A DNA stretch of 63,763 nucleotides, the filler included, from a bacterium (GTDB lineage: Bacteria > JADJOY01), in NCBI GenBank assembly GCA_046331705.1. It is 4 parts of 4 records of this genome, joined end to end, with 100 filler letters (N's around TTAATTAATTAA, not from the genome) between each part and the next. Parts side by side here need not be neighbours in the genome. Positions count along the whole stretch, not along the records: positions 1 to 21,033 come from JAXLQJ010000088.1; 3 more parts are not named here. One strand, written 5' to 3'. The first letter of the stretch is position 1, and each line of letters opens with the position of its first letter. Shown piece by piece: positions 8,510 through 60,281 of this stretch. The translations under genes were made by a program, and so were the position numbers. The notes under the pieces are model-generated. The model made no database searches, was not told the origin of the DNA, and was given only the letters and a program-made list of their open reading frames with translations.

Positions 8510-8788
8510 GATCGCACCAGGAGTTCGCGGGCGCTGGCGACGCACCCGTGGCGAGTGTGCCGCGCCGATGCCCGTGCGCCTAGCAGAGAGGACTCGTGAA
8601 ATGGACTCCGCAGGTTCGGCCGTGATTTCATAGCCGTGACGCCGAGCGAGCCGATCGCCATCCCCGATCGACCGCACCCGAATCCTCGACATTCAGCCTC
8701 GCTTCCGACGTGCATCGAAGGGCGTCGGTTGGACGCGCCGAAGAACCGAGATCGCGCGGGTCCGTGCCGCGCCTGCAGGAGACATCCG

Positions 8789-10510
8789 TTGAAACCCCAT
8801 CACCGCTTCCGCTGGATGCTCTCCCCGTGGCTGACGATTCCGCTCTTGCTCGTCTGTGCGACTCCGCTGCGCGCCGCGGTGCTCCTGAGCCAGAACTTCG
8901 AGTCCGGCTCACCTCCCAGCGGCTGGACGCGAACCCAGACGGTCCCGTCCGTCGGTTGGGAATTCGGCACGGCGCTGGGCTCGACCTACTTTGCGATCGG
9001 ATCCCACACCCGCTACGCGGCGTCGAACGACGACGCGCACGACGACTCCACCCACAACGCCAACAAAGCCGACAAGGATCGGCTCATCACGCCGGAGGTC
9101 GATCTCACGCCCTATGCCGGCCTCACCGTGCTTCTCACCTTCGACTACGTCCAACCGTCGACCTACGGCTCGACGGGCGACGTCGAGTTCACGATCAACG
9201 GCGGTTCGTTCTGGACGACGATCACCACCGTCACGCCGTCGACGAACTGGACCCAAGCCACGGTTCCGCTCAGCGATCACACCGACGCCTCGACCCTACA
9301 GATCGCTTTTCGTCACAACGACCACGGAGGATGGGCCGACGGCTTCGCCATCGACAACGTGCTGATCCAGACGCTGGCGCGCGACGTCGAGCTCGCCGCG
9401 ATCACCAACCCCAGCCACGTGGTCCTCGGCAGCAACTCGATCCTCGCGCACGTGACCAACCGAGGAACCACGCCGGTCACATCCCTGGCCTTCTCGTACC
9501 GGGTGAACGGCGGTGGTGCGGTCAACGGCACGGTCAGCGGGCTCAACATTCCTGCGGGTCAGAGCGCCACGATCACGCACCCGATCCCCTACAACTTCGC
9601 GAGCTACGGCGACTACGCCGTCACGGCCACCGTGACCGGCGTGAACGGCCAATCCGACCTCAACTCGGCGAACGACCAGGCGTCCGCCACGATCTCGACT
9701 GCGTCGCAGCTCGCACGCAAGCGCGTCGTGCTCGAGCAGTACACGGGGGCGTGGTGCCAGTTCTGCCCGGATGGCACGGTGTACTGGAACGACGCCCGTG
9801 CCATGGCGCGGGAGGTGATCGGGGTTTCCGTGCACAACGCCGATGCGATGGACATCCCGGACGGCGACACCGTCACCAATGCGTTCGCCTTCTCTTTCCC
9901 CGAGGGGAGCGTCGACCGCCGCCTGTTACCAGACGAGCCCTCGGTCGCCTTCACCCGCGGGCAGTGGCTGAACCGAATCGCCGAGAGTCTCGCCGACACC
10001 TCGGCGGCCAAGGTGGAGATCACGAACGTCGGCTTCAACGCCGGCACCCGCCAGATCTCGGGCACGGTGTCGGTCGAGTTCTTCGGTGACGACAGCGGCG
10101 ATCTACGCCTCAACCTGTGGGTCTTGGAAGACGGCGTCGTGGGCGTCGGCAACGGATACGATCAGGCGAACTTCTACAACACCCAGGTCGGACACCCGTT
10201 CTACGGGGCGGGAAACCCGATCATCGGCTTCGTGCACGACGGCGTCGTTCGCGCGATGCTCGGCGGCGCCTGGGGCACGGCGGGTGTCATCCCCAACGGC
10301 GTGCAGCACGGCCACACCTATCAGCAGTCGTACCAGTACGTGCTGCCCGCGGGGTACGACTACCAGAAGATCCGCCTCGTGGGCGTGCTGCAACGCTACG
10401 GCGCGACCGCAACGGACCGGGAGATCGTCAACGCGATGCAAACCGGTCTCTTCGACATCTTCGCCGACGACTTCGAGGACGGAAACGTGAACGCGTGGTC
10501 GAACTACTGA
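8789..10510 (+). CDS. Secreted Omp28-related protein (choice-of-anchor J/MAM-like jelly roll, CARDB-like Ig, thioredoxin-fold Omp28 domain)
   Basis: TTG start after AGGAGA; signal peptide ending PLRA; RLITPEVDL and FAIDNV; KRVVLEQYTGAWCQFCPDG (CxxC); HDGVVRAMLGGAWG; C-terminal DIFADDFEDGNVNAWS. Confidence 0.8.
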   Translation: MKPHHRFRWMLSPWLTIPLLLVCATPLRAAVLLSQNFESGSPPSGWTRTQTVPSVGWEFGTALGSTYFAIGSHTRYAASNDDAHDDSTHNANKADKDRLITPEVDLTPYAGLTVLLTFDYVQPSTYGSTGDVEFTINGGSFWTTITTVTPSTNWTQATVPLSDHTDASTLQIAFRHNDHGGWADGFAIDNVLIQTLARDVELAAITNPSHVVLGSNSILAHVTNRGTTPVTSLAFSYRVNGGGAVNGTVSGLNIPAGQSATITHPIPYNFASYGDYAVTATVTGVNGQSDLNSANDQASATISTASQLARKRVVLEQYTGAWCQFCPDGTVYWNDARAMAREVIGVSVHNADAMDIPDGDTVTNAFAFSFPEGSVDRRLLPDEPSVAFTRGQWLNRIAESLADTSAAKVEITNVGFNAGTRQISGTVSVEFFGDDSGDLRLNLWVLEDGVVGVGNGYDQANFYNTQVGHPFYGAGNPIIGFVHDGVVRAMLGGAWGTAGVIPNGVQHGHTYQQSYQYVLPAGYDYQKIRLVGVLQRYGATATDREIVNAMQTGLFDIFADDFEDGNVNAWSNY

Positions 10511-10607
10511 CCGCGGCGCTCCCGCCACGGTTTGCGGCTCGCGCCTCGCGGCGGTTAGGGTCGGAGCGCTGCGGTTTCGGGCTGGCCGTTGCCGCCGCAG
10601 CTCGTCC

Positions 10608-11009
10608 ATGACCCGCCACCGTCGATCGTCGTTCCCTCGCGTCCCGCTCGCGGGATTGCTGGCGCTGCTGGTTATCGCGTCGAGCGTACGCGCCGACGCC
10701 GGGTGGCGCGACTTCTCGAGGCAGGCCTCGAACGGCGGCGAGCTCACCGCCACCCGCGATCGCGACGACGCGCGCGCTACGGACTCGCTGCGCGCGGGCA
10801 CGACCTCGACCGAGCTCGCCTGCGAGGCGCTCCGCAACGCGCGCTCGCGTCACTCCCTCGACACCACGCACGCGCCGCCACCGGCGCGCGCCGATACCGC
10901 GAGCCACCACTCGGTGGCGCCCATCCGGCTCGCGGTCAGCACCGCGGGATCGGCCACCCTCACCCGCGCTTCGCCCGCCTCGCCCCGCGCACCACCGTTC
11001 GCCGACTGA
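10608..11009 (+). CDS. Small signal-peptide ORF ending in RAPP; candidate ribosome-arrest leader peptide
   Basis: Basic N-terminus, hydrophobic LAGLLALLVIA, ADA cleavage-like site, C-terminal SPRAPPFAD-stop. No obvious RBS. Confidence 0.5.
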   Translation: MTRHRRSSFPRVPLAGLLALLVIASSVRADAGWRDFSRQASNGGELTATRDRDDARATDSLRAGTTSTELACEALRNARSRHSLDTTHAPPPARADTASHHSVAPIRLAVSTAGSATLTRASPASPRAPPFAD

Positions 11010-11213
11010 GCCTGCGCCGCTCGCGCAGGACCTAGCTCGACGCCCGCCGCCGTGGAGGTTCCACGGCGCCGGGTTCGCGTTCGCGCGGGCAGTCGGCCCG
11101 CACCAGCGCGACCTGGCGATCTCCGCATCGCGTCGTCGCAACCTCGGTGCGCGCGCGTTTCGCCGCCACCGATCCATCCACCCTCGACTCACACGACTGG
11201 CACGAGGAAACCC

Positions 11214-11411
11214 ATGTCCACTCCCGAATCCAACCAGCACGATCTCGACGATCTCGAGACACCCACCCCAGCGGAAGCGACGGGCGCCCCCACTTCCAAC
11301 GGCGGCGGCGTGAAGGCATCGATGCGCGTCGCCGGGCTCGTCGCGCTCTCGACGGCCGCCGTGATCGTCCTCGGGAAGCTCGCCGAGCTTCTCGTCGGCC
11401 CGAGGCCGTGA
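11214..11411 (+). CDS. 65-aa peptide with acidic N-terminal half and hydrophobic C-terminal helix; candidate precursor peptide
   Basis: GAGGAAA RBS before ATG; stop overlaps the next start (GTGA). Sequence MSTPESNQHDLDDLETPTPAEATGAPTSNGGGVKASMRVAGLVALSTAAVIVLGKLAELLVGPRP. Confidence 0.7.
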   Translation: MSTPESNQHDLDDLETPTPAEATGAPTSNGGGVKASMRVAGLVALSTAAVIVLGKLAELLVGPRP

Positions 11412-13729
11412 GCACGCGATCCACGAGACGCGCGTCCGCCGGGCCGCGTCTCCATCCCGACGTGGAGATCCTCCGCGTCGGTCCCCGATCGTTCCTGCTG
11501 CGCGATGCCCGAACCGCGCATTCGTTCCAGCTCGGCGCGGTGGAGCGCCAGATGCTGCGTGCGATCGAGGAGACCGAGACTCCCGCGGCCGCGGCACAGG
11601 CTTGCGCCCAAGCCACGGGCAGACCCGTCTCGGCGCACATGGTTCGAGAGCTCGTCGAGCAACTCCGCACGGCGGGGTTGCTCGATCTCGACGGCGCCAC
11701 CGAAGCCCTGGTCGCGCCCGCTCTCGCGCACGAGGACGGCGACGCGCGCGCCCGCTCTCCGTGGGTCGCGCGCTGGAACGCGCTCTTCGGCGTGGGCGCC
11801 ATCGCCTTCGGGTGGGCGATCCACCCCGCCACGGTCGCGGCCGTGGCCGTGCTCGGCGCGGTCGGCGCCACCGCGGTGGTGCGCGGTCTCGACCGCTACC
11901 TGAGCGAGCTGAGCACGCTCTTCGATCGCGTGCCGCTGGTGTTGCTGGCAGCGCTCTCGCTCGCGAAGACCTTCTTCTTGGTCAACGTGCCGCGCGAAGC
12001 CGCCGTGGGTGTCGCCTGCAGGAAACACGGAGTGTGGGTGCGCGGCTTCCGCATCCACTGGATCCTCGGGCTCGTTCCCTTCATCCACTGCGAGCTGGGT
12101 GACGGCGTGGCGCGCCTCGCGGGCAGGGCGAGATGGCTCACGCTGACTGCGGGCCTGGTGTGCCAGTCGGGGATCGCCGCCGTCGCCGCGATCGGCTGGG
12201 CGATGACCCATCCGCGCTCGGACCTGAGCACCTTCTGGCTCCTCCTCTTGCCGGCGTGCCTGGCGCACCTGGCGCTGCACGCGTTCGTCTTCCTGCGCTT
12301 CGACTGCTATCGACTGCTCTGTGCGGCCGTGGGCGACTGGCGGCTGCGCGAGCGCGCGCTCGCCGAGACGCACGCATGGCTGGGACGGCGAGTCTCACCC
12401 GAGCCGCTGACGCGCCGCGAGCGCACCTGGCTGCGAGCGTACGGCCTCGGCCACCACGTGTTCGTGTGGGGCGGCGGCGCAGCCCTGCTCGTCGCCGTGC
12501 TGGTGTGGCTCGAATCGCGCATGGGGCCGAACGGTCTGCTCGTGGCCTTGGCGATCGGGCTCTGGGGCTATCGCCGCGAGCTCGGCCGCTGGTTGGTCGG
12601 GACACTCCCGTGGCGGTGGCTGGAACGACGGATCGGCGCGCTCGCCACCCGAGCGTTCGCGTGTGCCGCCGCCGCTCTGATCGCGATCGCGGGCCTGCTC
12701 TGGCCCTATCCCCTCGAGGTATCCGGCCCGTGCCAAGTCGTGAGCAGCGACCTCGCCGCGGTCCGAGCGACCGTCGCCGGCAGCGTCGCCGAGGTGGCGG
12801 TGCGCACGGGCGATCACGTGGATCGAGGTGCCGTGCTGGTGCGCCTCGACGAACCACCGCTCGCGCGCGAGCTGGGTGAGGCGCGGGCGACGCTGGCCCA
12901 CGAACGGGCGCGGCTCGCTCGAGCCGAGGCCGGTCCGCGGGCGGAAGACCTCGCGGTGGCCGAGGCCGAGGCACGCAGCGCACGCGCCGATCTCGCGCTC
13001 GCCGAGAGCCGCCTCGCACGCGCCGAGCAGCTCGCGTCCGCGCGTGCCACCACGGATCGCGAGGTCGCCGAGACGCGACGTCGTCGCGAGGCCGCGCTTC
13101 ACGCCGCGCGCATCCAAGAGCTCGAGCTCGCGGCACTTCGCTCCGGCTCACGCCCGGAAACGGTCGCTGCGGCGCGCGCCGACGTGGAGCGCTGGGCGGT
13201 GCGCGTGGCGCAGCTCGAGGACCAAGCCGCGCGACTCACGATTCGCGCGCCACACGCGGGGCGGGTGGTGAGCACGGACGTGGAATCGCGCCTCGGTCAA
13301 CGCGCCGACCGCGGTGATCTGCTGGTCCGCCTCGAGCGCGACGATCCCTCCCTGGTGGAGGTCGCCGCCGCCGAGGAAGCCATCGTCCGCGTCGAGGACG
13401 GCATGCCCGCGACGATCCGGCTGGTGGGGCTCGACGGTCACGCGCTCGCCGGCCGCGTCGTCCACGTCGCCAGCGCCACCGAGTCCTTGGCGCGGATCCG
13501 CGTACCGCGCTATCGCACCGAGCGCGAGGCCTTCCGGGAGTCCGCGCACGGCGATCGAGCTGCGCGGCACGTGCGCGTGATCGTGCGCCTCGACGACTCC
13601 GCTCGCCTGCTCGGGCCCGGTCTCACGGGCTTCGCCCGCATCCACGTCGCCCCCGATCGGCTCTACGCGGCGCTCGGGCGCGCCGTGCTCGGCTATCTCC
13701 GGACCGACGTCTGGTCGTGGTTGCCGTGA
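11408..13729 (+). CDS. PqqD/RRE-like domain + degenerate M50 (site-2 protease)-like membrane domain + HlyD membrane-fusion domain
   Basis: N-terminal FLLRDARTAHSFQL...VRELVEQLRTAGLL; multi-TM middle with PREAAVGVACRKHG and FLRFDCY; C-terminal VRATVAGSVAEVAVRTGDHVDRGAVL, coiled coil, LTIRAPHAGRVV, LGPGLTGFARI. Confidence 0.8.
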   Translation: MSTRSTRRASAGPRLHPDVEILRVGPRSFLLRDARTAHSFQLGAVERQMLRAIEETETPAAAAQACAQATGRPVSAHMVRELVEQLRTAGLLDLDGATEALVAPALAHEDGDARARSPWVARWNALFGVGAIAFGWAIHPATVAAVAVLGAVGATAVVRGLDRYLSELSTLFDRVPLVLLAALSLAKTFFLVNVPREAAVGVACRKHGVWVRGFRIHWILGLVPFIHCELGDGVARLAGRARWLTLTAGLVCQSGIAAVAAIGWAMTHPRSDLSTFWLLLLPACLAHLALHAFVFLRFDCYRLLCAAVGDWRLRERALAETHAWLGRRVSPEPLTRRERTWLRAYGLGHHVFVWGGGAALLVAVLVWLESRMGPNGLLVALAIGLWGYRRELGRWLVGTLPWRWLERRIGALATRAFACAAAALIAIAGLLWPYPLEVSGPCQVVSSDLAAVRATVAGSVAEVAVRTGDHVDRGAVLVRLDEPPLARELGEARATLAHERARLARAEAGPRAEDLAVAEAEARSARADLALAESRLARAEQLASARATTDREVAETRRRREAALHAARIQELELAALRSGSRPETVAAARADVERWAVRVAQLEDQAARLTIRAPHAGRVVSTDVESRLGQRADRGDLLVRLERDDPSLVEVAAAEEAIVRVEDGMPATIRLVGLDGHALAGRVVHVASATESLARIRVPRYRTEREAFRESAHGDRAARHVRVIVRLDDSARLLGPGLTGFARIHVAPDRLYAALGRAVLGYLRTDVWSWLP

Positions 13730-13792
13730 GTGGCGCGCGGCGCTCGCCAAGCGGAGCCGAGCGCTCACCGCTGGCGAACGGCGCGCGAGCCA

Positions 13793-14392
13793 TCACACCT
13801 GCGATGGATCCGGTTCGTGGCGCACCGGCGGAAGGTAGCCGGGATCGACTCGGTACGCCTCGATCGCTCGCGCGAACGCGGTGAGCGCGCGCACGATGAC
13901 GGGTGCAGCGTCGGGATGCGCTGCAATCCCCTGCGCATCGAGGGTGGTGGAACGCAGCGAGACCGTGATCGAGGCCTCGTCCACGAGTCGGCACGACATC
14001 GTCCGCAAGGTCTCCACGAGGGAAGCCACGGCGTGGACCGAGGACGGTGACGCGTGGAAGATCGCGCACGGCTTGTGGGTGATCTCGCATCCTCCCACCA
14101 GCCAATCGAGCGCGTTCTTGAGCGATCCGGGCAGGCCGCGCGCGTACTCGGGCGTCGAGAAGAGCAGGCCGTCGGCGCCGTGGACCGCTCGACGGAGGCG
14201 ATCCACCGCCGGCCAATCGTCGCGTTCGCGATCGGGGTTGAAGTGCGGCAGCTCACCCAGCTCGTCGTAGCGCTCGATCGTCATCCCTGCGGGCGCCAGC
14301 AACGCCGCCGCTTCGAGAAGCGCGGTGTTCGAGGACGCGCGGCGCAAGCTGCCCGAGATCGCGAGCACGCGCAGCGGCGGGGCGTCATTCAT
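13793..14392 (-). CDS. NADPH-dependent FMN reductase (ChrR/SsuE-like)
   Basis: LAISGSLRRASSN, LPHFNPD, STPEYARGLPGSLKNALDW. Confidence 0.93.
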   Translation of the reverse strand: MNDAPPLRVLAISGSLRRASSNTALLEAAALLAPAGMTIERYDELGELPHFNPDRERDDWPAVDRLRRAVHGADGLLFSTPEYARGLPGSLKNALDWLVGGCEITHKPCAIFHASPSSVHAVASLVETLRTMSCRLVDEASITVSLRSTTLDAQGIAAHPDAAPVIVRALTAFARAIEAYRVDPGYLPPVRHEPDPSQV

Positions 14393-21033: not shown

Positions 21034-21133
21034 NNNNNNNNNNNNNNNNNNNNNNNNNNNNNNNNNNNNNNNNNNNNTTAATTAATTAANNNNNNNNNNN
21101 NNNNNNNNNNNNNNNNNNNNNNNNNNNNNNNNN
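21034..21133. other. Artificial contig spacer
   Basis: 44 N + TTAATTAATTAA (stop in all six frames) + 44 N; genes are truncated on both sides. Confidence 0.98.
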
Positions 21134-41132: not shown

Positions 41133-41232
41133 NNNNNNNNNNNNNNNNNNNNNNNNNNNNNNNNNNNNNNNNNNNNTTAATTAATTAANNNNNNNNNNNN
41201 NNNNNNNNNNNNNNNNNNNNNNNNNNNNNNNN
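41133..41232. other. Artificial contig spacer
   Basis: 44 N + TTAATTAATTAA + 44 N. Confidence 0.98.
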
Positions 41233-60181: not shown

Positions 60182-60281
60182 NNNNNNNNNNNNNNNNNNN
60201 NNNNNNNNNNNNNNNNNNNNNNNNNTTAATTAATTAANNNNNNNNNNNNNNNNNNNNNNNNNNNNNNNNNNNNNNNNNNNN
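60182..60281. other. Artificial contig spacer
   Basis: 44 N + TTAATTAATTAA + 44 N. Confidence 0.98.

Follow-up and report, generated by a model that had tools for sequence, protein, structure and literature searches.

In a stretch of bacterial DNA of 63,763 nucleotides (nt; assembly GCA_046331705.1), hereafter called the window, we studied a cassette of three open reading frames (ORFs), A, B and C, which are co-oriented on the plus strand and occupy positions 10608-13729. A-B-C is a real and ordinary-looking operon, in which known parts occur in a new combination, and the sequences at hand place this combination in a single orthologue group of a poorly sampled lineage. Our best explanation, to which we assign a probability of roughly 0.45, is that A is an arrest leader, B a small membrane subunit and C an adaptor. 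Most likely, as a part of this explanation, the cassette is not a maturation system for peptides that are made by ribosomes and modified after translation (RiPPs). ORF A (10608-11009, 133 amino acids, aa), the product of which is probably a small secreted protein, ends with ...SPASPRAPPFAD in front of its stop codon and carries the motif RAPP there. ORF B (11214-11411, 65 aa) encodes a small membrane protein and is preceded by the Shine-Dalgarno (SD) sequence GAGGAA (11204-11209), located 5-10 nt before the ATG. Its stop codon (TGA) overlaps the GTG start codon of ORF C in the tetranucleotide GTGA (11408-11411). ORF C (11408-13729, 773 aa) is a fusion of a RiPP recognition element (RRE), an M50-like pseudoprotease that has lost its zinc ligands, and a HlyD domain.

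A first-pass annotation of this DNA had described the three ORFs at these positions, a separate ribosome-binding site (RBS) of B, the overlap of B with C, and the lack of an adjacent modifying enzyme, ABC transporter or TolC gene. All of these observations were borne out; none of the three gene types exists among the 15 genes called on the 21-kb contig carrying the cassette. The interpretation of A as a RAPP leader also agrees with our data, as the RAPP ORF is conserved and fits the published arrest-peptide class at the level of sequence. The proposed RRE, M50-like pseudoprotease and HlyD domains of C were confirmed by profiles, Foldseek and VIA-align. The suggestion that B is a precursor peptide was not sustained, in view of a variable leader, a conserved hydrophobic part, a C protein devoid of catalytic histidines and the restriction of B to five orthologous loci.

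According to the model, A, B and C would make up a self-contained operon. The small A protein would be targeted to Sec, and its translation would stall at the C-terminal Arg-Ala-Pro-Pro for a period depending on the fate of its exported N-terminal part. The stalled ribosome might remodel the structured RNA of the A-B spacer so that the RBS of B opens, and B and C would then be made together, presumably by translational coupling through the GTGA overlap. B would be a tail-anchored single-pass protein serving as the small subunit of C, its helix sitting with the domain that resembles site-2 proteases (S2P). The cytoplasmic RRE of C would bind a peptide segment, either the N-terminus of B or another ligand, while the membrane domain without a zinc site would hold a transmembrane (TM) or peptide ligand that it cannot cut. 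The periplasmic HlyD adaptor, which is of the MacA/EmrA type, would reach a TolC-type outer-membrane channel encoded elsewhere. The folds of C and the loss of its catalytic residues are observed, whereas its ligand, the channel it works with and the direction in which transport or signalling proceeds are inferred. The likeliest role of the cassette would be that of an envelope export or quality-control adaptor, which is switched on when the export of A is disturbed; the assignment of C as an export adaptor is tentative.

The phylum-level genome search took in six genomes of one family and two genera. Altogether, five orthologous loci were compared: the window, L001 (at one site with L009), L002 (at one site with L010), L011 and L012. 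Their C proteins are 86-87% (L001), 84% (L002), 55% (L011, same genus) and 54% (L012, other genus) identical to that of the window. An A-like ORF, a B-like ORF and C are present in all five loci and thus in both genera. Because the flanking genes vary among the loci, we regard the trio as a conserved unit. Close full-length relatives of the window C were found in only a handful of records. Near-identical copies of the locus of this activated-sludge bacterium are also present in metagenomes that 13 studies obtained from activated sludge and wastewater.

ORF A and the A-B spacer

At the sequence level, A possesses every feature of the RAPP class of arrest peptides, whose members are described as small proteins with a localisation signal, the motif near the C-terminus and a co-oriented downstream gene (PMC12992588, here and below referring to the accessible parts of that paper). 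We consider it probable that A functions as an arrest leader. Its N-terminus (10608-10697), which reads MTRHRRSSFPRVPLAGLLALLVIASSVRA followed by DA, resembles a signal peptide composed of a basic n-region, a hydrophobic core (Kyte-Doolittle value 2.72 over 13 aa) and a VRA/DA junction, as judged from the sequence and a hydrophobicity scan. All A homologues have a comparable hydrophobic segment at the N-terminus, and that of L012 shows a lipobox-like LVGC in place of the window's sequence. The presumed stall site consists of R127-A128-P129-P130 (CGC GCA CCA CCG, 10986-10997). By analogy with CruR, whose toeprint puts one of its two prolines into the P site and the other into the A site of the stalled ribosome (PMC12992588), P129 would occupy the P site and P130 the A site.

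The frame of A looks coding, with a GC content of 0.80-0.92 at third codon positions, and close orthologues differ most at the third, less at the first and least at the second codon position. A evolves fast, since 27-28 synonymous and 40-41 non-synonymous codon changes distinguish the window from L001 or L002. A profile search in 5.8 billion proteins yielded seven matches to A, all of them 133-136 aa long, which were combined with the orthologous loci to a set of nine distinct homologues. Each of the nine ends with [SA]PRAPP, one to three further residues and the stop codon, though overall identity to the window drops to 27-33%. They also have the central motif AGT(T)ST..AC.A[LM]R..R[ST]R in common. 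Neither Pfam nor NCBIfam disclosed a match to A.

How informative the motif is depends on its background frequency. This GC-rich genome gives 77,480 segments when translated in six frames, and 214 of them (0.28%) contain RAPP within six residues of a stop, so that a single RAPP occurrence is weak evidence. In the same segments, RAPP was counted 4209 times and AAPP 2712 times. Among 5564 ORFs with a coding-like GC distribution over the codon positions, RAPP was about fivefold rarer than AAPP (46 versus 225), and a depletion of RAPP in proteomes has likewise been described by Fujiwara et al. (PMC12992588). Genome-wide, three ORFs of 60-300 aa exhibit a RAPP-like motif within eight residues of the stop together with a hydrophobic N-terminal part. 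Judged by sequence, A is the only convincing RAPP-type candidate of the three, as it alone has a proper signal-peptide layout. Upstream of secA, secDF and yidC, a simple genome screen revealed no RAPP-type candidate.

A might instead be nothing more than a small secreted protein, or a lipoprotein, that has a periplasmic function of its own, in which case RAPP would regulate nothing and the three genes would merely be co-transcribed. Such a protein would account for the conserved central motif, which is not obviously needed by an arrest leader. RAPP-like strings are moreover common in GC-rich sequence, Fujiwara et al. saw no stalling with most of the natural RAPP-like motifs that they tested, and the window does not show a SD-sequestering helix that joins the stall site to the RBS of B. 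Nevertheless, we regard this explanation as unlikely. PRAPP has kept its place one to three residues from the stop in 9/9 homologues despite diverging flanks, and RAPP is depleted in the likely coding ORFs of the genome. The published class has exactly the features of A, and all seven Streptomyces lividans proteins with C-terminal RAPP or RGPP that were tested stalled (PMC12992588). Two properties of the RNA also speak against it, namely a conservation of the spacer exceeding the coding level and the presence of 7-nt complements between stall footprint and SD sequence in L011 and L012. A metal sensor, as known for CruR and Cu-related upstream ORFs, was considered as well and rejected, since A has no conserved cluster of His, Met or Cys residues; where the other sequences have their only conserved Cys, L002 has an Arg.

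The spacer between A and B (11010-11213) is structured and C-rich and presumably acts as a regulatory RNA. From the stop of A to the start of B it measures 204 nt in the window, 204 nt in L001, 193 nt in L002, 133 nt in L011 and 124 nt in L012. A comparison of the window with L001 gave 94% identity for the spacer, but 79%, 81% and 89% for the coding sequences of A, B and C, respectively; the corresponding value of the spacer for L002 is 72-74%. For the region 10975-11235 a minimum free energy of -112.3 kcal/mol was calculated (z = -2.42 versus shuffled sequences). The consensus fold of the three close orthologues (window, L001, L002) comprises 68 pairs, two of which show a compensatory change, and includes a local hairpin pairing CGAGG of the B SD sequence (11203-11207) with CCUCG (11182-11186). 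To model the stalled ribosome, P129 was placed in the P site and nucleotides -12 to +14 were made unpairable. The pairing predicted for the B RBS of L011 and L012 falls mainly on this stall footprint (pairing mass 6.9 out of 9.8 and 8.95 out of 12.7, respectively) and involves perfect 7-nt complements of footprint and SD sequence (CCUCCGG/CCGGAGG and UCUCCUG/CAGGAGA). In the modelling, a classical unmasking of the SD sequence is supported in these two lineages; in the window lineage, for which the local CCUCG/CGAGG hairpin is predicted instead, it may or may not occur.

A scan of 10400-14000 revealed neither a sigma-70 consensus promoter nor an intrinsic terminator; classical attenuation through a terminator in the spacer therefore lacks support. 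Rfam searches of 10400-11500 gave only sub-threshold matches at chance level, none of which reached the gathering score. Upstream of A, at 10548-10564, there is a conserved 17-nt element, GCGGCGGTTAGGGTCGG. The nearly identical sequence GCGGCGGTTACCGTCGG precedes A in L012 and a related form was detected in L011, the distance to A varying among the three loci. This element may be a -10 promoter region, as its TAGGGT fits TANNNT. RNA-library contigs of two studies matched positions 10908-11058, 11076-11226 and 11010-11249 without differences and bridge the stop of A and the start of B. They are compatible with a single transcript, though such contigs show neither strand nor ends nor absence, may stem from DNA carry-over and leave most of A, B and C uncovered. 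The 3' part of the spacer is rich in C and poor in G (20 C and 8 G at 11150-11189), which had prompted a Rho-blocking model similar to TnaC. This model was dropped because the C-rich stretch lies 140-200 nt past the stall site, beyond the reach of the stalled ribosome.

The fusion protein C and its small neighbour B

The AlphaFold2 models of C are confident, with a mean pLDDT of 85.5 for that of the whole protein and of 82.3 for that of residues 1-432. Three folds were recognised. At the N-terminus (residues ~14-95, 11447-11692), profile and structure matches revealed a winged helix of the RRE/PqqD type with the order beta-beta-beta-alpha-alpha-alpha, whose block of residues 19-88 reaches pLDDT values of 79-90. 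The family profile hit the PDB sequences of TbiB1 (E = 8.2e-6) and TfuB1 (E = 0.015). VIA-align with residues 11-95 gave the best score for TfuB1 (Z 10.7, root-mean-square deviation (rmsd) 2.6, 83 aa), followed by TbiB1 (Z 9.4) and PqqD (Z 7.1). In Foldseek, TM-scores relative to the target ranged from 0.67 to 0.75, and numerous RiPP enzymes were matched through their RRE domains as well. The window C itself yielded E = 0.0034 with the lasso-type PqqD model NF033530, which is short of the cut-off. Taken at the level of these models, the RRE/PqqD winged-helix fold is confirmed, with lasso-peptide B1 proteins as best matches.

The central part of C (residues ~118-431, 11759-12700) is a polytopic membrane domain, for which structure matches indicate the S2P (M50) fold. 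Within residues ~120-360, VIA-align aligned 154 aa with SpoIVFB (Z 10.6, rmsd 3.9) and reached Z values of 9.7 and 8.4 with two orthologues of RseP and of 7.5 with the S2P of M. jannaschii, whereby helical bundles with Z values below ~13 may share only a common arrangement. Homology to M50 proteins is backed by the fact that HExxH-bearing relatives sit in the same alignment; the window C itself gave no M50 family match by sequence. In the alignment blocks, HExxH is replaced by R196-E197-A-A-V200 (11993-12007). Where four distant members have HE[LF]AHG and N.NP...LDG, the window shows PREAAVG and FLRFDCY. Both zinc-binding histidines are gone, and D299 within FLRFDCY aligns with the Asp of NxxPxxxLDG. 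Because both catalytic histidines are lost, C cannot remove a leader. Its sequence marks C as M50-like rather than as a competent M50 member, and it should neither bind zinc nor cut.

The remaining part (residues ~432-773, 12701-13726) is a periplasmic adaptor of the HlyD/membrane-fusion protein type. It was detected by Pfam above the cut-offs (HlyD_3, E = 4.1e-12; HlyD_D23, E = 1.1e-11) and contains lipoyl, alpha-hairpin and beta-barrel domains. Foldseek matched it with MacA, EmrA, AcrA and MexA at E values between 1e-15 and 1e-10, the best being 3.6e-15 and those of MacA and EmrA lying at about 1e-15 to 1e-14. A total of 72 PDB chains were hit with E<=0.001.

B has a single hydrophobic stretch, a C-terminal TM helix (residues ~37-55, 11322-11378), which is followed by the tail LGKLAELLVGPRP. 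This layout suggests a tail-anchored protein whose N-terminus resides in the cytoplasm. SD-like sequences in front of B and the GTGA overlap were observed in 5/5 orthologues. In the alignment of the five B proteins, the N-terminal 35 residues are acidic and variable, and this part is 8-17 residues shorter in L011 and L012. The helix and the tail are conserved and comprise the invariant residues R38, L42, T47, G54, L56, A57, L59, L60 and G62. B homologues are confined to the five orthologous loci, one of them being annotated by NCBI as hypothetical protein, and B matched no family in Pfam or NCBIfam. Since leader/core conservation is reversed and B is coupled one-to-one to C, B is better explained as a small subunit than as a product, and we are inclined to prefer this assignment. 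By its sequence, B looks like a lineage-specific tail-anchored membrane subunit and not like a RiPP precursor.

The opposite assignment, B as a substrate or precursor, would imply that its acidic leader is bound by the RRE of C, that the core is handled by the M50-like domain and that HlyD passes it on to an outer-membrane channel, the peptide being exported uncut or cut by an unlinked protease. Several findings point in this direction. C contains a genuine RRE of the lasso-peptide B1 type, B is located immediately upstream of C and coupled to it, and in the window an acidic N-terminus of B is followed by GGG and an amphipathic hydrophobic segment. Leader-bearing small ORFs in front of relatives with an intact protease (5/24 loci, see below) make peptide handling plausible for the family. 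In addition, the M50 protease EpeP is thought to cleave and export its own peptide, according to the accessible part of PMC10885120. We still judge this assignment improbable. A RiPP precursor should have a conserved leader and a variable core and lie beside a modifying enzyme and/or an active leader protease; the conservation of B is the reverse, with a variable N-terminus and a conserved hydrophobic part, and the locus provides no modifying enzyme nearby and a C protein lacking both catalytic histidines. Each locus contains a single B copy, stoichiometric with C, as expected of a subunit rather than of a product, and a B-like ORF was found in none of 35 distant loci. A double-glycine leader in B was rejected, as GGG occurs only in the three close orthologues and is absent from L011 and L012.

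Relatives of C and the standing of the cassette model

A search of 1.84 billion cluster representatives with the C family gave 9031 matches with E<=1e-3, 1304 with E<=1e-10 and 142 with E<=1e-30. Many of them are full-length proteins of 750-800 aa; longer forms and split forms with N halves of ~390-415 aa and C halves of ~370 aa exist as well. Among 48 aligned full-length members, Pfam identified HlyD in 48, PqqD in 14 and Peptidase_M50 in three. HExxH is kept in four of the 48 and degenerate in 44. Relatives are labelled as HlyD family efflux transporter periplasmic adaptor subunit, multidrug efflux pump subunit AcrA or putative peptide zinc metalloprotease protein. Atlas clusters with up to 1281 members, most common in Pseudomonadota, Planctomycetota and Acidobacteriota, are labelled only as HlyD family adaptor, as Peptidase family M50 or, in most cases, as hypothetical. 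The first-pass annotation had not recognised the minimal arrangement as a described system. This view has to be corrected in so far as the RRE-M50-HlyD fusion belongs to a large family and HlyD-M50 proteins had been noted in 2015 (PMC4452313, here and below in its accessible parts). Its proposed check, whether a small ORF and a RAPP ORF recur upstream of C homologues, was positive for the orthologues, where A and B precede C in 5/5 loci; beyond them, a B-like ORF was found in 0/35 distant loci and 0/4 loci of a paralogue group.

The distant context was studied on 66 metagenome loci, and 77 flanking proteins of 14 loci were scanned with Pfam. Genes of the TolC family (OEP) adjoin the relatives in three of the 14 loci (L027, L029, L032). 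No ABC transporter was seen among the 77 proteins. A TPR protein is encoded just upstream in L032 and, as judged from the sequence, in L027 and L022; TPR proteins often precede relatives without HExxH. The C ORF of L028 (1528-4773, 1081 aa) possesses an N-terminal extension of ~300 residues, which reads TPR-like, and one neighbour in L032 combines TPR repeats with a PilZ domain. Methyltransferase or sulfotransferase genes are located near the relatives in L025, L032 and L022. The screen of the 35 distinct distant loci, chosen for sufficient sequence in front of the gene, for small TM ORFs abutting the C gene applied a hydrophobicity threshold to ORFs ending between -60 and +40 nt of the C start, so that its negative result does not cover shorter or otherwise placed ORFs.

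Five of the 35 loci harbor one to four tandem small ORFs directly upstream of the RRE-M50-HlyD gene (L033:2713-3832, L049:2917-3720, L034:144-377, L075:907-1146, L077:288-527). They share the N-terminal sequence ...[VI][ED]ELEERIAP[SG]... and have low-complexity tails rich in G, N, P, S and H. All five belong to the 24 loci with intact HExxH and NxxPxxxLDG, compared to 0/11 loci without HExxH, several of which are split halves for which the comparison is trivial. The ELEERIAP peptides matched no Pfam or NCBIfam family, and literature searches returned nothing relevant. From their sequences, they look like an undescribed family of precursor peptides served by a single protein for recognition, cleavage and export. 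Since the intact-protease relatives carry tandem leader-bearing small ORFs, the C family may handle peptides. For the branch with intact catalysis, the idea of a recognise-cut-export protein thus has real support at the level of sequence, which it lacks in the branch of the window. The presence of intact-protease relatives behind leader-bearing ORFs and the loss of catalysis in the window clade suggest that a peptide-processing exporter has repeatedly turned into a non-catalytic binder.

The same genome encodes a paralogue of C (G000:C9:184026-186317; L004:1498-3795), which is 43% identical and shows PREVAVG in place of HExxH. Members of this paralogue group were also detected in three related genomes (L013, L014, L015).

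A number of observations weigh against the proposed cassette model. None of the four loci of the paralogue group, including the one in the same genome, has A or B upstream of the C gene, indicating that both are dispensable for this type of protein. The conserved central motif suggests that A may have a function of its own, and no SD sequence could be recognised in front of A in 5/5 orthologues. Stalling of A at RAPP is argued from sequence and analogy, and the contact between B and C is likewise a deduction. The CCUCG/CGAGG hairpin of 5 bp is predicted only if folding begins at 10975. Pairing of the RBS of B with the stall footprint is not predicted in the window, L001 and L002 (0.07, 0.61 and 0.00, respectively), and there the modelled stall did not alter the predicted accessibility of the RBS (0.47 before and after). 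Even in L011 and L012, the predicted increase was modest (0.45 to 0.55 and 0.30 to 0.48, respectively). Finally, a role in export has no visible source of energy because no transporter, ATPase or TolC gene is situated nearby.

Two further explanations start from the same three genes. In the first of them, A would monitor the B-C machine itself and not Sec. B and C would form an unrecognised route across the envelope for peptides or small membrane proteins, nascent A engaging this route would release the RAPP stall, and the cell would in this way gauge the capacity of the route and adjust the synthesis of B and C. If true, a feedback loop based on an arrest peptide outside Sec/YidC would for the first time assign a function to a family that counts thousands of members, but we consider it a long shot, for the route as well as for its gauging. 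Equally improbable is a signalling device in which B is held by the dead S2P domain (cf. anti-sigma factors and RseP), the HlyD part monitors periplasm or outer membrane and the RRE passes the state on to a cytoplasmic partner. The best matches to the S2P fold are SpoIVFB, complexed with pro-sigma-K, and RseP, B with its C-terminal TM helix appears to be single-pass and N-in as expected of such substrates, and pseudoenzymes often keep binding after losing catalysis, but neither a sigma factor, an anti-sigma domain nor a transcription factor is present in or beside the cassette, the cytoplasmic part of B is short and unconserved, and HlyD domains are known as adaptors, not as sensors.

The contig bearing C corresponds to window positions 1-21033 and belongs to a host genome of 8.17 Mb in 118 contigs. 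The window is a concatenation of contigs, parted by paired N runs at 21034-21133, 41133-41232 and 60182-60281. Besides the cassette, the 15 genes called on the 21-kb contig are mostly metabolic or regulatory. They include genes for GGDEF/EAL and TetR proteins, a carboxyltransferase, an acyl-CoA dehydrogenase, a short-chain dehydrogenase/reductase, a flavin mononucleotide (FMN) reductase, a luciferase-like monooxygenase and a lipid desaturase. Just upstream of A (8636-10510) lies a gene whose secreted product combines a choice-of-anchor J domain with CARDB/DUF11-like repeats and an Omp28-like domain. L001 has retained this gene in front of A, and L002 only a 3'-end remnant of ~50 aa.

Significance and comparison with known systems

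Arrest peptides of the RAPP type have recently been shown to precede genes well beyond Sec/YidC. With A as an arrest leader, A-B-C would add a new downstream class, present in two genera, and it yields the prediction that the expression of B and C depends on RAPP. The cassette also offers an experimental handle on a large uncharacterised family, in which an RRE, a S2P fold and a secretion adaptor are joined in one chain. The split of this family into members with intact and with lost protease concerns the fields of RiPPs, secretion and pseudoenzymes alike. The wider RRE-M50-HlyD family and the ELEERIAP peptides of its intact branch appear to be more promising leads than the cassette.

The closest counterparts of A are the RAPP/RGPP arrest peptides ApdA, ApdP and CruR and the Streptomyces lividans proteins encoded upstream of non-Sec genes (Sakiyama 2021, Fujiwara 2024, 2025). 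Like A, they are small, have an N-terminal localisation signal and RAPP or RGPP a few residues before the stop, are followed by a co-oriented gene and show little conservation outside the motif. It has been reported that such motifs are concentrated close to the C-terminal ends of small proteins, either secreted or located in the membrane, whose ORFs precede genes of many functions, and the source data of 2025 list genes of periplasmic adaptor subunits among the downstream classes (PMC12992588). Here, the downstream genes encode a small membrane protein and an RRE-pseudoprotease-HlyD fusion, and A is known from its sequence alone. The main text of that paper nowhere uses the terms HlyD, PqqD and site-2, and HlyD and M50 are likewise missing from the searchable parts of its supplement. 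Examples in the source data contain a metal-binding segment rich in His, Met and Cys, which A does not have (PMC12992588).

The RRE of C shares with TbiB1, TfuB1 and PqqD the winged helix of three strands and three helices as well as detectable sequence homology. Unlike these proteins, which stand alone or are joined to a modifying enzyme, it is fused to a membrane protein, and it is strongly conserved across a family whose adjoining small ORFs are not. SpoIVFB, RseP and the RiPP-linked proteases EpeP/YydH and TglG have the fold of the membrane core in common with C, and distant C relatives keep HExxH and NxxPxxxLDG. C differs from these site-2 proteases by RExxV in the window and by the lack of PDZ and CBS domains.

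A fusion of the same kind as C was described in 2015, when HlyD proteins with weak similarity to Peptidase_M50, some of them encoded beside OEP genes, were found in secondary SecA_DEAD loci. The authors proposed that the M50-like part is the inner-membrane component of a type-I-like secretion system (PMC4452313). PqqD (0 occurrences), a RAPP leader and a small membrane ORF do not appear in the text of this report, and the GAF-HlyD partner of those loci is not present with C. A link to a secondary SecA was dropped, as the host genome has a single SecA_DEAD match, an open frame of 960 aa with the size of a canonical SecA. Our literature searches brought up neither a description of the fusion with RRE nor of the combination A-B-C. 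MacA, EmrA and HlyD possess the same lipoyl, alpha-hairpin and beta-barrel domains as C, but C has no adjacent cognate ABC, MFS or RND gene, and it is anchored by a whole S2P-like domain instead of one helix. In E. coli HlyD, the cytoplasmic N-terminal part meets the substrate. The layout of B resembles that of the small single-pass efflux-pump subunits of the AcrZ type, in which a very small protein with one TM helix accompanies a component of a tripartite-type pump, a similarity of arrangement for which we claim no homology.

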